DNA from: Anaerolineales bacterium
Lineage (GTDB): Bacteria > Chloroflexota > Anaerolineae > Anaerolineales > UBA6663
Reading direction: 5' to 3'
Length of the DNA stretch: 26,605 nt
Assembly (NCBI GenBank): GCA_038252885.1
Contig: JBBRZY010000001.1
Coordinates: 1-26,605 of the forward strand
The position numbers and the translations under genes were made by a program. Shown one piece after another: positions 747 to 26,415 of this stretch. Each line of letters starts with the position of its first letter. Position 1 is the stretch's first letter. The notes under the pieces are model-generated. The model did no database searches, was not told the DNA's origin, and saw only the letters and a list, made by a program, of their open reading frames with translations.

Positions 747-2259
747 GTAACTACTCAGCGGTCCCAGGCACGAGACATGCTATAAACTGTGCAAATGCTT
801 AGCCGTGACGAAATTCTGACCGTCTACGCCGCTGGCCCGGAGGCGGTGGTGGCCCTGGTGGAGCAGTTGCAAGCCACCCAGGCTGAGTTGCGCCAGCAGG
901 TGCAGGCTTTGACCGTGCGCGTGGCCGAACTGGAAGCGCGCCTCAAGCAGGACAGCCACAACAGCCATCAGCCGCCGTCGAGTGACGGGCCGGCCAAGTT
1001 GCCGCCCCGGCGCAGCCAGCGCCGGCGCAGAGGTAAAAAGAGTGGCGGGCAACCAGGCCATCCGGGGGCGACCCTGGTGCAGGTCAAACAGCCCGATACC
1101 GTCGTGCCGCACGCAGCGAGTGCCTGCGGGCAGTGCGGCGCGGCGCTGACGGCCGCTCCGGTGGTGAAGCGCGAGCGCCGGCAAGTCATGGACTTGCCGC
1201 CCATCCGGCCCCAGGTGACCGAGCATCAGGTGCTGCACCAGTGTTGCCCAGCGTGTCAGGCGGTAACCAGCGGCCAGTTTCCGGCGGAGGTGACCCAGCC
1301 GATCCAATACGGACCGGACATCAAGGCGCTGGCGGTGTACCTGCAAGAGTATCAGCATCTGCCGTTTGAGCGCACCCAGGAATTCTTTCAGGACGTCTGC
1401 CACCTGCCCTTGTCGGAAGGCACCCTGGCAGAGGCGCGCGCGACCTGCGCCGAGCGCCTGGAACCGGTCGAAACAGCCATTAAACAGGCCTTGAGTGAAG
1501 CGCCGGTCGTGCATTGCGACGAGACCGGCATGCGCGTCGCCGGCCACACCGACTGGCTGCACGTGGTCAGCACAGCCAGCTTGACTTACCTCGCCCGGCA
1601 TGCCAAACGCGGCCGGGAAGCCATGACGGCCATTGGCCTGTTGCCCATCTTCAAGGGCACGGCGATGCACGATGGACTGGGGGCCTACTTCCGATATGGC
1701 TGCCGGCATGCGCTCTGCAATGTCCACCTGCTGCGCGATCTGACCGCCGTGAGCGAGATCACCCGCCAGCGCTGGCCGCAGGGCCTGGCCGACTTGCTGC
1801 TGGGGATCAAGGCCAGTGTGGCGCGTGCCGTGGCGGCCGGTCATAAGCAGTTGACCGCCCGCCAAATCAAGACCTTCACCGACCAGTATCAGCACTTGTT
1901 CCAAACCGGACTGCGCGCCAACCCGCCGCCCAGCCGCACTGGCCGGCGCGGCCACCCCCGCCAGGGTCCAATTCGCAGCCTGCTCCTGCGGCTCAAGAAA
2001 CATCAGACTGCGGTCTTGGCTTTCATGCACGATTTCCGCGTCCCGTTCGACAACAACCAAGCCGAGCGCGACCTGCGCATGGCCAAGGTCCGCCAGAAAA
2101 TCGGCGGCGGTTTTCGCAGTCAGCGCGGAGCCGATATTTTCTGCCGCATCCGCGGCTACATCGCCACCATGCGCAAGCAGGGTCAAAACTCCTTGGCCGC
2201 GCTCCGCAGCGTTTTTGCCGGTCAAATCCTTATGCCCTGCCTGACCGCTGAGTAGTTAC
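747..2259 (+). mobile_element. IS66-family insertion sequence, single-ORF (ISBst12-type), 1513 bp
   Basis: Perfect 17-bp terminal inverted repeats GTAACTACTCAGCGGTC (747-763, 2243-2259); 8-bp target duplication AAAGAAAG (739-746, 2260-2267); no tnpA/tnpB. Confidence 0.95.
795..2255 (+). CDS. tnpC: IS66 family DDE transposase, ~486 aa
   Basis: Leucine-zipper N-terminus, SxNSxxPPSSD motif, CxxC...CxxC zinc finger, DETG, HDG, PFDNNQAERDLRMAKVRQK; ATG 795 (GTG 789 alternative); stop inside the right IR. Confidence 0.93.
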   Translation: MLSRDEILTVYAAGPEAVVALVEQLQATQAELRQQVQALTVRVAELEARLKQDSHNSHQPPSSDGPAKLPPRRSQRRRRGKKSGGQPGHPGATLVQVKQPDTVVPHAASACGQCGAALTAAPVVKRERRQVMDLPPIRPQVTEHQVLHQCCPACQAVTSGQFPAEVTQPIQYGPDIKALAVYLQEYQHLPFERTQEFFQDVCHLPLSEGTLAEARATCAERLEPVETAIKQALSEAPVVHCDETGMRVAGHTDWLHVVSTASLTYLARHAKRGREAMTAIGLLPIFKGTAMHDGLGAYFRYGCRHALCNVHLLRDLTAVSEITRQRWPQGLADLLLGIKASVARAVAAGHKQLTARQIKTFTDQYQHLFQTGLRANPPPSRTGRRGHPRQGPIRSLLLRLKKHQTAVLAFMHDFRVPFDNNQAERDLRMAKVRQKIGGGFRSQRGADIFCRIRGYIATMRKQGQNSLAALRSVFAGQILMPCLTAE

Positions 2260-2376: not shown

Positions 2377-3990
2377 TCAGGCGCGGCGGGTGTGCGCTTG
2401 CAGCTTGTCGGCGGCGAGACGGCGCAGGGGCTCGGGCAGGCCGAGGCTGGGGCTGGCAAGCGCGGTGGCGATGGCGGTGAAGATGTCTGGCGCGGCGGCG
2501 GCAAGCTCGCCGAGCAGGCGGCCGAGGCGCTGGGGATTGGCGGAGAGGCCCTTGCGGGCCTCGGTCTCGAGGCGCTGGACGGTCTGCTGCAATTCGTCGG
2601 GGTCAACGGCCGGGGCGGGCGGGCGGGCAGCCACTTGCCGGTGGAATTGGCGGAAGGCTTCGGTGAGCGCTTGGCCCGGCTGGGGGTCGGCGGTGGGGGT
2701 GGTGGTGAGCTTGTCGCCGCCGACGAGGTCGCCGCCGATAGTGACCGGCGCTCCAAAATAAGAGCCCTCGACGTGCAGGCCCCCAGTAACCACGCTGCCG
2801 CCGATGTGAGCGCCAGAGCCGATGCTGATGCTGCCCGAGCCGGCGGGGGTGGCTGGGGCGCCGGACGCGGGCGGGGCGGGCTCGGGCACCGACCACAGGC
2901 GGTCGCCTTCGACGCGCAGGAAGAGCACGGGCGTGGCGAAGACGGCCAGGTCGGGGGCTTGATCGAATAGGACGGCGCGGGCGCGGGTGAGGGCGGTCTC
3001 GACTTCGCCGGCCTCACTGCCGCTGAGCAGCGCGCGATAGAAGCCGGCGGCAAACGCCTGGGCGGCCCAGTCGAAGATATCCCACTGCATGGCGATGACG
3101 GCCGGCACGCCCTGGCCGGCCAGGCGCGGGGCCAGGCCAAGCAGCGCCTGGGCCGAGTCGGCGGCGGCACCCTGGCAGGCGTTGAGCACGACCAGCCGGA
3201 CGCTGTCTTGATTGCGGAAGAAGCCGGCCACCAGGCCGGCGGGCGCGGGCAGGGGGTCGCCCTGGTCGTCGGTCAGCAGCAGGCTGGGTTGGCCGTCTTC
3301 AAAGCGGCCGTGGCCGATGAAGTGGACGATGTGGGGCTGGTGATCGCTGAGGGCGGTGCGGATGGCGTCTTCGGTGACGATATCGGCCAGCCAGGTGAGC
3401 GCAACCAGCGGCTGGGCGCCGGCCGGTGCGCGGCGGTTGGCGGCGGCCACGGCCTCGTCGAGCGCGGCGCGGTGCTGGGCGGAGTCTACCCCGGCGGCGC
3501 GCGGCAGTAGGGCCAGCAGCCGCAGCGGGCGCAGCGGTTCGAGGCGCGGCACACGCAGCTTGAGGTTGAGGTAGCGGGTGACGACGGTGTCGGTGGAGAT
3601 GGCGAGCGGCTCATGGTCGTCGGGCCGCCAGAGCAACTCCCACGGCAGGGCGTTGAGCTCGGGGGCCAGCAGGCGCAGGCGGAGGCGCAGGCCGTGATCG
3701 TCTTGGGCGGCGGCGACGCTGCGGGCGTTGTCGAAGAGTTGGCCGATCTCGCCGGGGAGCAGGGCGGCGGCCAGGCGCTCGCCCAGGGCGCGCAGCGCGG
3801 CGGCGTCGGCGGTGCCGGCGCGCACGGCGTTCAGCGCGGCTTGCAGGGCCGGGTCGGCCGGGTCGAACGGGCTGAGCGGCTCGGGCCGGCCGACGGCAGG
3901 GGCCTGGCCGACGCTGGCGCACTCGGCGCGCAGCGGATAGCCGCCGGGGAGGCGCTGGCCGACGAAGAGATCAAAGGACAGGTAGTGCAT
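2377..3990 (-). CDS. CHAT (caspase-like) domain protein with Gly-rich low-complexity segment and C-terminal helical domain, 537 aa
   Basis: LPWELL, HIVHFIGHG (catalytic His) and LVVLNACQGA (catalytic Cys), VIAMQW and FAAGFYRAL motifs; SD GGAGG; TATAAT at 4017-4022. Confidence 0.88.
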   Translation of the reverse strand: MHYLSFDLFVGQRLPGGYPLRAECASVGQAPAVGRPEPLSPFDPADPALQAALNAVRAGTADAAALRALGERLAAALLPGEIGQLFDNARSVAAAQDDHGLRLRLRLLAPELNALPWELLWRPDDHEPLAISTDTVVTRYLNLKLRVPRLEPLRPLRLLALLPRAAGVDSAQHRAALDEAVAAANRRAPAGAQPLVALTWLADIVTEDAIRTALSDHQPHIVHFIGHGRFEDGQPSLLLTDDQGDPLPAPAGLVAGFFRNQDSVRLVVLNACQGAAADSAQALLGLAPRLAGQGVPAVIAMQWDIFDWAAQAFAAGFYRALLSGSEAGEVETALTRARAVLFDQAPDLAVFATPVLFLRVEGDRLWSVPEPAPPASGAPATPAGSGSISIGSGAHIGGSVVTGGLHVEGSYFGAPVTIGGDLVGGDKLTTTPTADPQPGQALTEAFRQFHRQVAARPPAPAVDPDELQQTVQRLETEARKGLSANPQRLGRLLGELAAAAPDIFTAIATALASPSLGLPEPLRRLAADKLQAHTRRA

Positions 3991-4122: not shown

Positions 4123-4434
4123 CTAGGCTGAGGCCGGCATGTGCCGATGGATTGATTTGAGCGTGTCTTGTTCGGTTTGCTGGGCTTGATACAAATCCCA
4201 ACGCAGTTGCACCGCCAGCCAGAAATCGGCCGACATGCCAAAGAACTTGCTCAAGCGCAGGGCGGTGCTGGGCGTGATGCCGCGCCGGCCATTGACGATT
4301 TCATTAATGCGCTGATAGGGAACGCGAATGGCGTCGGCCAGTTCGCGTTGCGTGAGCTGCATGGGGGCGAGAAATTCTTCCAGCAGCATTTCGCCGGGAT
4401 GCGTGGGCATGCGATGGGAGGGGACGCGTACCAT
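4123..4434 (-). CDS. higA: HigA family addiction-module antitoxin (HTH), 103 aa
   Basis: PTHPGEMLLEEFL, LTQRELADAI, RINEIVNGRRGITPSTALRLSKFFGMSADFW motifs. Confidence 0.93.
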   Translation of the reverse strand: MVRVPSHRMPTHPGEMLLEEFLAPMQLTQRELADAIRVPYQRINEIVNGRRGITPSTALRLSKFFGMSADFWLAVQLRWDLYQAQQTEQDTLKSIHRHMPASA

Positions 4435-4457
4435 GGTGACACCTATACTTTCCTGGC

Positions 4458-24475: not shown

Positions 24476-24506
24476 TAGCCGGGGTGCGAATGGCGGAGAG
24501 AAAAGA

Positions 24507-24548
24507 GAAAGAGAAAAAGAAAAAGGTAGGGCCGAGGCAGCACCCTAC
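24507..24548 (+). repeat. purine tract plus GTAG-type REP-like hairpin
   Basis: GAAAGAGAAAAAGAAAA identical to 2263-2279, both followed after 2 nt by GTAGGGC; here GTAGGG-N11-CCCTAC. Confidence 0.55.
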
Positions 24549-24598
24549 TTTTATTCGTTCGCTATTTAGCCGTTGATGTTTGAAAAAGGAGGTCGGCC

Positions 24599-24700
24599 TT
24601 GAACGGCCGTCCTCCAATTCAGAATCTGGGCACTGCTCGCATTGGTGGGCTGCCAAGGCTGGGGCGGACCAGGCGATTTGCTCGATTCGACGGTCAGTAG
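24599..24700 (+). CDS. unannotated 33-aa Arg-rich peptide MNGRPPIQNLGTARIGGLPRLGRTRRFARFDGQ
   Basis: AGGAGGT SD 5 nt before TTG; gap-free paralog at 24906 with many synonymous changes. Confidence 0.65.
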   Translation: MNGRPPIQNLGTARIGGLPRLGRTRRFARFDGQ

Positions 24701-24765
24701 TGTTCAACGTCTGGGGGCCGTCGCAGCGCAAGATGGACGAATGAAAGCAACTATCTGACCCTTCA

Positions 24766-24817
24766 CGAAAAAACTAAGTGGATGGCAGTCAGGCCTGCCA
24801 TCCACTTAGTTTTTTCG
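24766..24817. terminator. perfect 23-bp inverted repeat, probable bidirectional terminator
   Basis: CGAAAAAACTAAGTGGATGGCAG-tcaggc-CTGCCATCCACTTAGTTTTTTCG. Confidence 0.85.
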
Positions 24818-24905
24818 TTGGCACGCGCACACGGCTGCGACAGACCTAACCGCTTGGTGCGGCGGGGTGTCCAGACTAATGATCCTTGGTAAAAGGAGGT
24901 CGCAC

Positions 24906-24983
24906 GTGAAGGGACGGCTCCCAATTCAGAATCCGGGCACTGCGCGCATTACCGAGCTGCTAAGGCGGGGACGGACGAGATAA
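24906..24983 (+). CDS. unannotated 25-aa Arg-rich peptide MKGRLPIQNPGTARITELLRRGRTR (paralog of 24599-24700)
   Basis: AGGAGGT SD 5 nt before GTG; homology continues past the TAA to FDGQ-stop at 25007. Confidence 0.6.
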   Translation: MKGRLPIQNPGTARITELLRRGRTR

Positions 24984-25135
24984 TACTCGTTATTCGACGG
25001 TCAATAATCGGGTGAGCTGTCTCCCCCGCCACACGGCCGGGTGGTGATGGAGGCTGCGAGCGGGGGTTCGGATGGACCGGGCCGAGGAGCGGGTGATGGG
25101 CCAGCGGCCGGAAGCGGGCGCGTTGCGCGGTAAAC

Positions 25136-25176
25136 GAAAAATGCCGGGGAAGTCAGCACGCTTGACTTCCCCGGCA
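25136..25176 (-). terminator. intrinsic terminator of the general-stress gene
   Basis: 14-bp perfect stem TGCCGGGGAAGTCA / TGACTTCCCCGGCA (25142-25176) with a T5 tail on the minus strand. Confidence 0.8.
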
Positions 25177-25204
25177 CTTGTATTGTTGCAAAGGCTGGCG
25201 CGAC

Positions 25205-26122
25205 TTACCGAATGGTTGCCTTGACGTTCTCCCAGGCGGTGCGCACGGCGAGCTTGAAGTCGGCCCAGGTGTTGTTGGGGTAGCGCGTCTCCCACTCGCG
25301 CTGGGCGTCGGGCTCCACGCGTTCCCAGTCGTAGTCCTTGTAGCGCGGGTCGGCCCGCAGGGTTTGGCCGTAGACGTAGGCCGGGCGGTAGACGTCAAAG
25401 TCGCGGCCGGTGGCGGCGAGGGCTTCGTCATAGTGGCGGCGGAAGTAGCTCTCGTCGTCATCGTAGCGGCTGGCCGGATCGACACTTTCGGCCAGGCCAT
25501 AGATGCGGCGCTCGGCGGCTACCTGTTCGCCGGTGTAAGGTTCAGACGTCGGGCTGTAGCCGGTCCAGCCGTTGGCGCGCCAGTCGGCCGCGCGGCGCTC
25601 GACATCGACCGCGTAGTGGCGGCTAAGGATGCCGCGCACCGCCTCGGCCTGGTCATCGGAGGCGTTCACCGTCACCAGTGCGCCGCCGCGCCGCACGCCC
25701 TCGGCGTAGTAGTGGGCCTGATCTTCCGGCACGCCCAGGTCGACCAGCGCGCCCAGCAGGCCGCCGGCCAGGCCGCCGCTGACTGCGCCCATGCCGACGC
25801 CGAAGATGCCGCTGAGGACCGTAGCCAGCGGGCCGGCCGCCAGCACCGGGCCGATGCCGGGCAGCACCAGCGCGCCCAGGCCGACCATGAGCCCGGCCAG
25901 GCCGCCCAGCACCGCGCCCATGCCCGCGCCGGTGGCGGTGGCGTCGCGGTGGACGGGGGTGGTGGTGGCCCAATCGGCCCCGTTGAGGCTCTGCGTGTAC
26001 GTGCCGGTGACGTCGTGCGCCACCAGGCTGACATCGCTGCTGGGCAAGCCCAGCTCGCGCAAATCGCGCACGGCCGCGTGGGCGGCGTCGAGGTTGTCAA
26101 ATAGTCCGGCGATAGTTTTCAT
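25205..26122 (-). CDS. general stress protein (YflT/17M-like N-terminus, glycine-zipper membrane segment), 305 aa
   Basis: MKTIAGLFDNLDAAHAAVRDL, GAGMGAVLGGLAGL...GIGPVLAAG...GGLLGALVDLGVPE.AHYYAEGVRRGG; SD AAGGAG. Confidence 0.75.
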   Translation of the reverse strand: MKTIAGLFDNLDAAHAAVRDLRELGLPSSDVSLVAHDVTGTYTQSLNGADWATTTPVHRDATATGAGMGAVLGGLAGLMVGLGALVLPGIGPVLAAGPLATVLSGIFGVGMGAVSGGLAGGLLGALVDLGVPEDQAHYYAEGVRRGGALVTVNASDDQAEAVRGILSRHYAVDVERRAADWRANGWTGYSPTSEPYTGEQVAAERRIYGLAESVDPASRYDDDESYFRRHYDEALAATGRDFDVYRPAYVYGQTLRADPRYKDYDWERVEPDAQREWETRYPNNTWADFKLAVRTAWENVKATIR

Positions 26123-26359: not shown

Positions 26360-26415
26360 GAAATTTTTACCAGGGGGTCGGTGGGCAAGCCCACCTTCCC
26401 CCTGGTAAAAATTTC
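26360..26415. repeat. 56-bp near-perfect palindrome
   Basis: 18-bp arms GAAATTTTTACCAGGGGG / CCCCCTGGTAAAAATTTC, 2x2 internal loop, 7-bp GGTGGGC / GCCCACC, 2-nt centre. Confidence 0.9.

Follow-up and report, generated by a model that had tools for sequence, protein, structure and literature searches.

Very short genes and short intergenic repeats can resemble each other closely, and the locus described here has to be compared with described systems of both kinds. With the type I toxin-antitoxin (TA) toxins Hok, TisB, Fst and Ibs it shares a tiny ORF, an SD sequence and start codon enclosed in a stable hairpin (in copy 1), local duplication and a terminator-like hairpin on the opposite strand. 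The small basic proteins bL34 and bL36 offer a different likeness, as the peptide considered here has a length in their 30-45 aa range, a pI of about 12, many Arg residues and no hydrophobic core. At the non-coding level, BIME/REP-type clusters of Escherichia coli and MITE-rich spacers are generally known as mosaic arrays of intergenic repeats. Finally, the Chloroflexi-1 RNA motif (RF01698; Weinberg et al. 2010, PMC2864571), a multi-copy hairpin-plus-terminator element, serves as a comparison only for one of the dispersed repeats of the locus, R-b. When all the evidence is taken together, the likeliest reading, to us about an even proposition, is that the pair of homologous units analysed below (the twin units) arose recently and in this lineage only, through an intergenic, non-coding module that was duplicated or inserted.

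The window, i.e., the whole stretch of 26,605 nt analysed from an Anaerolineales bacterium (assembly GCA_038252885.1, contig JBBRZY010000001.1), contains, according to the repeat finder, a two-copy direct-repeat family termed D2. Its copies are 121 nt long, gap-free and 75% identical, with a start-to-start spacing of 307 nt, and they differ by 30 substitutions and not a single indel. This repeat is far beyond chance: when copy 1 was compared by BLAST with the whole 5.35-Mb assembly, only copy 2 was found (E 4.9e-18) besides chance matches of 14-30 nt. An assembly artefact can be ruled out, since copies 25% apart would neither collapse nor duplicate in assembly. In both copies the SD-like box AAAAGGAGGT is followed, after 5 nt, by the start codon of a short frame (Table 1); the starts differ (TTG and GTG), yet both are starts, and the terminal stops differ (TAG and TAA), yet both are stops. 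Seven codons of this frame (3, 4, 13, 22, 24, 25 and 33) differ synonymously. The gap-free homology, the spacing, the box, the starts and stops and the seven synonymous codons, together with the TAA at codon 26 of copy 2 and the FDGQ-stop kept further downstream, had been described in an earlier note on this DNA and were reproduced here. Past its codon-26 TAA, the frame of copy 2 (24906-25007) continues as YSLFDGQ until the second TAA at 25005-25007, and the last 12 nt before the terminal stop (ATTCGACGGTCA) are identical in both copies. Because this segment is perfectly kept even beyond the in-frame TAA of copy 2, conservation proceeds without regard to the reading frame. The frame of ORF1, for its part, remains open for 63 more codons beyond its TAG, through R-b and until the TAA at 24890-24892 (region 24698-24892); this open extension is treated as a coincidence, there being no sign of TAG reassignment.

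Table 1. Coordinates of the twin units, of the neighbouring elements and of the corresponding intergenic gaps in relatives.
Feature	Position	Strand	Details
Gap, this genome	24476-25204		729 nt
Gap, L259 (metagenome contig)	1391-1661		271 nt
Gap, L114 (metagenome contig)	4168-4448 (compared region)		about 208 nt
Gap, L261 (metagenome contig)	2540-2717		178 nt
Gap, L260 (metagenome contig)	2989-3092		104 nt
Gap, two JGI contigs			224 nt; gene coordinates only, no DNA
R-a, pure-purine dispersed motif	24494-24534	+	about 19 nt 3' of the M20 peptidase stop; about 100 BLAST copies in own genome
Weak hairpin and U-run	24526-24556	+	GGUAGGG...CCCUAC then UUUUAUU; -11.8 kcal/mol, z -2.2
Twin unit copy 1	24579-24699	+	repeat family D2; sole other genome copy is 24886-25006
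SD-like AAAAGGAGGT of copy 1	24584-24593	+	sequence inspection
Strong hairpin over SD and start of copy 1	24588-24615		-21.6 kcal/mol, z -5.3; on the minus strand followed by UUUUU
ORF1 (putative gene)	24599-24700	+	TTG start, 33 aa, pI 12, TAG stop, ends FDGQ
R-b, dispersed element of about 150 nt	24704-24853	+	starts 3 nt after ORF1 stop
Twin unit copy 2	24886-25006	+	repeat family D2 and BLAST
SD-like AAAAGGAGGT of copy 2	24891-24900	+	sequence inspection
ORF2	24906-24983	+	GTG start, 25 aa, TAA at codon 26 (24981-24983)
R-c, GC-rich dispersed repeat	25011-25100	+	starts 3 nt after terminal stop of copy 2
Terminator hairpin of the convergent YflT-like gene	25139-25179	-	-28.4 kcal/mol, z -6.3

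Among the collections searched, the twin units are orphans that occur in this genome only. At the DNA level, they had no match in 60 relatives, of which two belong to the same genus and 20 to the same family. Exact and degenerate sequence patterns likewise found nothing among viral, metagenome and genome contigs, nor did tblastn against phages, and the own genome, searched by DNA, peptide and six frames, contains no third copy. The same six-frame comparison, meant to reveal whether the units are fragments of genes, gave no match. At the peptide level, the genomes examined, 22 of the family, 400 of the order and 400 of the class, yielded no homolog (the class-level sample took in one unpublished genome, G402, which gave nothing beyond a chance-level match), and the best matches (E 0.006-0.1) turned out on inspection to lie out of frame inside real genes, as expected of chance. 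Likewise, the peptide had no match among 1.84 billion protein representatives searched with phmmer, in an exact-product look-up, in the ESM Atlas, or in Pfam and NCBIfam, the latter two even at E 10. The peptide family put forward in the earlier note is thus reduced to two copies in one genome, with no frame-keeping homolog in the family, order and class genomes examined.

The twin units lie between two convergent genes, the upstream one encoding an M20 ArgE/DapE-type peptidase (+ strand, 23306/23318-24475) and the downstream one a YflT-like protein (minus strand, 25205-26122). In the syntenic relatives the peptidase is 88-93% identical and the convergent neighbour is conserved, and the gaps are much shorter (Table 1). 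None of the four sequenced syntenic gaps (L114, L259, L260 and L261) contains a twin-like unit: those of L114 and L259 hold nothing but the purine motif R-a and, behind it, a single R-b element, and those of L260 and L261 a plain terminator hairpin. The DNA that is extra with respect to these syntenic loci has a GC content of 0.54-0.58, versus 0.667 for the genome. With regard to the divergence of the two copies (0.30 after Jukes-Cantor correction), it is important to consider the dS of the flanking genes against the nearest relative, L114, which amounts to 0.36-0.38. Because the former is no larger than the latter, neutral value, the 75% identity needs no purifying selection, and a duplicate made after the split from L114 and left to neutral drift would be expected to show about such a divergence. 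What pure drift explains least comfortably is the complete lack of indels among 30 substitutions. Across the close relatives, the gap between the same convergent genes enlarges stepwise by added repeat modules (104, 178, about 208, 271 and 729 nt), which constitutes a small natural series of mosaic build-up. A further repeat is found in the intergenic DNA downstream of the YflT-like gene, namely a 27-nt inverted repeat (26360-26415) that is 93% complementary and has a 2-nt loop.

The surroundings of the twin units are rich in repeats. When the 729-nt gap is compared with the genome by BLAST, the coverage reveals three multi-copy blocks, R-a, R-b and R-c, and zero coverage over the twin units themselves. 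R-a is a motif of about 30 nt with a consensus near GCAGAGAAAAAAGAAAGAGAAAGAGAAAAAGGTAGGGC, 85-97% conserved in a genome of 66.7% GC. A strict pattern retrieves 53 copies, 28 of which sit 5-30 nt after the stop codon of a gene on the same strand, often between convergent genes; given this position behind the preceding gene, R-a is no marker of 5' UTRs; had it been one, a gene start behind it would have gained in likelihood. The motif is also present in the congener G002 and, at the same site, in L114 and L259, and it could constitute a 3'-UTR or RNA-binding-protein site, or else provide a U/C-rich tail for the opposite strand.

In R-b, two conserved arms, of 70 nt on the left and 35 nt on the right, enclose a hairpin that is preceded by an A-run and followed by a T-run. 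At this locus the hairpin is a perfect one of 24 bp (24765-24818, with A6/T6 flanks, -40.5 kcal/mol, z -10); its sequence is different in every copy and the pairing is always kept. At least 17 full and about 25 partial copies, many of them at contig ends, are found in the own genome (for instance, C94:25-173, C877:1450-1597 and C495:4118-4295, the last contig with two left arms converging on one hairpin), and about 30 in G002, whereas L114 (4265-4420) and L259 carry R-b at the same intergenic site. By its appearance, R-b would be a bidirectional terminator that is portable and may have a structured RNA attached to it. No common sequence precedes the left arms of its copies, so that a fixed insertion target derived from the 3' end of the twin unit can be discarded. 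Finally, R-c has at least 13 copies with the common sequence GGGTGAGATTCCTCACCCCGC...GCGAGCGGGGGTTCGGAATGACAG, among them those at C121:4630, C291:228, C80:4850 and C86:8377; its GGGTGAGATTCCTCACCC hairpin is separated from a conserved GCGAGCGGGGGTTCGGAATGACAGG block by a variable spacer of about 25 nt, and the repeat has no match in Rfam. Since the twin units abut R-a, R-b and R-c, the ends of their homology coincide with module boundaries within the mosaic, and their sharpness need not reflect selection on an ORF.

The duplication of a non-coding module could have proceeded as follows. A module of about 121-135 nt would have been duplicated or inserted inside a fast-growing repeat mosaic between the two convergent genes, and the SD-like box, the open frame and the hairpin would have been carried along within the duplicated segment. 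The copies would then have drifted apart at an about neutral rate, copy 1 retaining a strong palindrome and copy 2 losing it and gaining an in-frame stop. Such a module would probably have no peptide product. At most, the hairpin of copy 1 with its minus-strand U5 tail would insulate the converging genes from each other or add a further stop to transcription between them, and this palindrome may still serve as a stop signal for the minus strand.

The question of whether the units are translated was approached through the pattern of differences between the copies. Within the ORF frame, 27 of the 102 positions differ, distributed as 5, 9 and 13 over the first, second and third codon positions, with the changes at the second position (9 of 27) equalling random expectation and with replacements that are radical (P/L three times, G/E and L/R). 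Nei-Gojobori counts over codons 2-33, skipping the stop codon, yield a pS of 0.46 (12 changes over 26.2 sites) versus a pN of 0.17 (11 over 66.8 sites). For the permutations, copy 1 and the exact mutation spectrum were kept fixed and the changes redistributed among sites, with pS-pN as the statistic. The resulting p value over codons 2-33 is 0.019 in the ORF frame, the best of all six, followed by 5.7% in the antisense frame with common third positions and 32-92% in the remaining four; correction for six frames brings the ORF-frame value to about 0.11. Much of the synonymous signal comes from codons 3' of the TAA of copy 2, and over codons 2-25, the sole part (24 codons) translatable from both copies, p is 0.135. 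Of the coding selection invoked in the earlier note, what is seen is thus a marginal signal: pS exceeds pN and the ORF frame ranks first, and the values after correction and over the shared codons are not significant.

Codon usage and the SD box were evaluated against the rest of the genome. ORF1 has a GC3 of 0.55, compared with 0.86 for native long ORFs, and its codon log-likelihood of -0.53 per codon places it at the 0.8th percentile among windows of real genes and at the 94th among off-frame windows. Genuine L34 and L36 genes, located elsewhere in the genome on contigs C561 and C2, were taken as controls and show a GC3 of 0.81 and 0.65, respectively; since the genuine small basic L36 gene also has a low GC3, codon usage is a soft argument that does not exclude a gene. 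As for the box, AAAAGGAGG occurs seven times in the genome, two of these within the twin units, and AAGGAGGT occurs 47 times. A start codon at the right spacing follows at 18 of the AAGGAGGT sites, 12 of which lead into ORFs of at least 50 aa, while 29 of the 47 have no start codon behind them, so that the SD box alone is not diagnostic.

At the RNA level the two copies behave differently. The hairpin of copy 1 pairs GGAGG-U-CGGCC with GGCCG-U-CCUCC, placing UUG in the loop and burying GGAGG, whereas the equivalent stretch of copy 2 forms only a broken helix (-9.9 kcal/mol, z -1.3), matched by 20 of 200 shuffled sequences. When the whole units were folded against shuffles on both strands, copy 1 gave z scores of -3.0 and -3.5 and copy 2 of +0.9 and +0.6. 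Folding the two copies jointly yields weak consensus structures of -15 and -10.7 kcal/mol, either of them with a single compensatory pair, and the substitutions between the copies in the hairpin are non-compensatory. Of the SD-sequestering hairpins attributed to both units in the earlier note, that of copy 1 is therefore significant (z -5.3) and that of copy 2 is not, with no structure common to the two. A scan of the region against Rfam with E up to 10 returned hairpin noise and no match for the units. In the terminator scan, a terminator-like match emerged on the minus strand at 24609-24594, in the copy 1 hairpin, followed by UUUUUCAAA; copy 2 has no such hairpin with U5. A terminator lies just upstream of each unit and a plus-strand terminator hairpin downstream of each, and the weak hairpin at 24526-24556 is probably the terminator of the peptidase gene. 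No σ70-like promoter was detected on either strand between 24400 and 25300, in a scan whose consensus may differ from the promoter type of this organism.

Considered against the duplication of a non-coding module, the possibility that the units are an orphan pair of small-protein genes, acquired horizontally or born de novo, is on the unlikely side but deserves to be taken seriously. Copy 1 would encode a 33-aa, pI-12, unstructured and Arg/Gly-rich peptide whose translation is locked by the -21.6 kcal/mol hairpin, and copy 2 a truncated (25 aa) or decaying paralog. The observations that agree with such a pair are at the same time those that count against the duplication reading: the ORF frame has the best contrast of the six (pS 0.46 versus pN 0.17, permutation p 0.019), the rare AAAAGGAGGT is perfect and ideally spaced in both copies, start and stop survive change, the alignment lacks indels, and a plus-strand terminator hairpin follows each unit. 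Properly spaced AAGGAGGT sites also lead in their majority (12 of 18) into ORFs of at least 50 aa. Against the gene pair stand the loss of the signal in the codons translatable from both copies, the codon-26 stop of copy 2 with conserved sequence after it, the lack of a homolog in any collection searched and of the units themselves in syntenic relatives, the GC3 well below that of native genes, the absence of a promoter-like site together with a terminator just upstream of each unit, and the 29 AAGGAGGT sites without a start codon. If the units were real genes, they would represent a very recent birth or acquisition of small genes with built-in translational locking and an example of a non-hydrophobic toxin-like peptide. 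A stronger version, which we regard as quite improbable, is that of a newly arisen or acquired gene pair for a highly basic, non-hydrophobic micropeptide, in which the intact copy is silenced by its hairpin and the accessible copy is truncated. If true, this arrangement would be the one expected where the full-length peptide is harmful when freely made, as would be, for instance, a toxin binding nucleic acids or ribosomes, for which type I systems offer no described example so far.

Two further explanations dispense with a peptide. An RNA-level element, which we consider unlikely, could take the form of a minus-strand small RNA ending at the copy 1 hairpin and its U5, possibly antisense to a plus-strand message as in type I TA systems, or of a plus-strand sRNA ending at the R-b terminator. 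The minus-strand hairpin with UUUUUCAAA that was picked up in the terminator scan and the folding of whole copy 1, better than that of shuffles on both strands, are consistent with it, but copy 2 has no folding advantage over its shuffles on the plus or the minus strand, each weak consensus structure has a single compensatory pair, the hairpin substitutions do not compensate each other, and neither an Rfam match nor a promoter-like site was found. Alternatively, the units might be remnants of a mobile or foreign insertion, i.e., two ends or attachment-site copies of a lost element, or a low-copy MITE. Although the lower GC of the extra DNA and the setting of mobile-looking repeats, many at contig ends, would fit such an origin, sequence inspection reveals no terminal inverted repeats and no target duplication, the units exist as only two copies at one locus, phage and viral collections contain no match, and the left flanks of R-b show no common target, all of which makes these remnants very unlikely. 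Should the duplication of a non-coding module be the correct reading, the main lesson of the locus is that selection is not needed for a two-copy intergenic duplicate to come to hold an SD-like box, an open frame and a handful of synonymous differences. The more useful by-product of the analysis is a catalogue of intergenic repeats, with three families that are abundant in this lineage, including a pure-purine motif located right behind stop codons.

Returning to the described systems, the twin peptide differs from type I TA toxins in having no hydrophobic helix: the ORF1 and ORF2 peptides have GRAVY values of -0.79 and -0.95 and maximal Kyte-Doolittle hydropathies over 11 residues of 0.22 and -0.09, and the net charge is +5.5 with no hydrophobic stretch. 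The atypical type I toxin proposed in the earlier note thus fails in its main test, the hydrophobic segment being absent; moreover, no antisense promoter appeared in the scan, and the twin peptide matches no Pfam or NCBIfam profile. The likeness to bL34 and bL36 ends at the same point, as the twin peptide matches no profile in these two collections even at E 10, and the twin lacks conservation even among congeners. Readings as a lasso peptide or a leader peptide were dropped because copy 1 has no acidic ring-closing residue, no gene follows downstream on the same strand and no maturation genes lie nearby. As far as R-b is concerned, one of its copies (L061) matches the Chloroflexi-1 motif with 35 bits, far below the gathering score of 80 bits and driven mainly by the terminator hairpin, and the R-b copy of this locus has no match in Rfam, Chloroflexi-1 included.

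The comparison with BIME/REP-type clusters has limits as well, given that the twin unit has only two copies and no inverted termini, and that none of R-a, R-b and R-c has a sequence related to REP/BIME. Nevertheless, what the locus has in common with mosaic intergenic repeat arrays is their construction: short modules of several families between convergent genes, palindromes able to act as terminators, and variation between close relatives.
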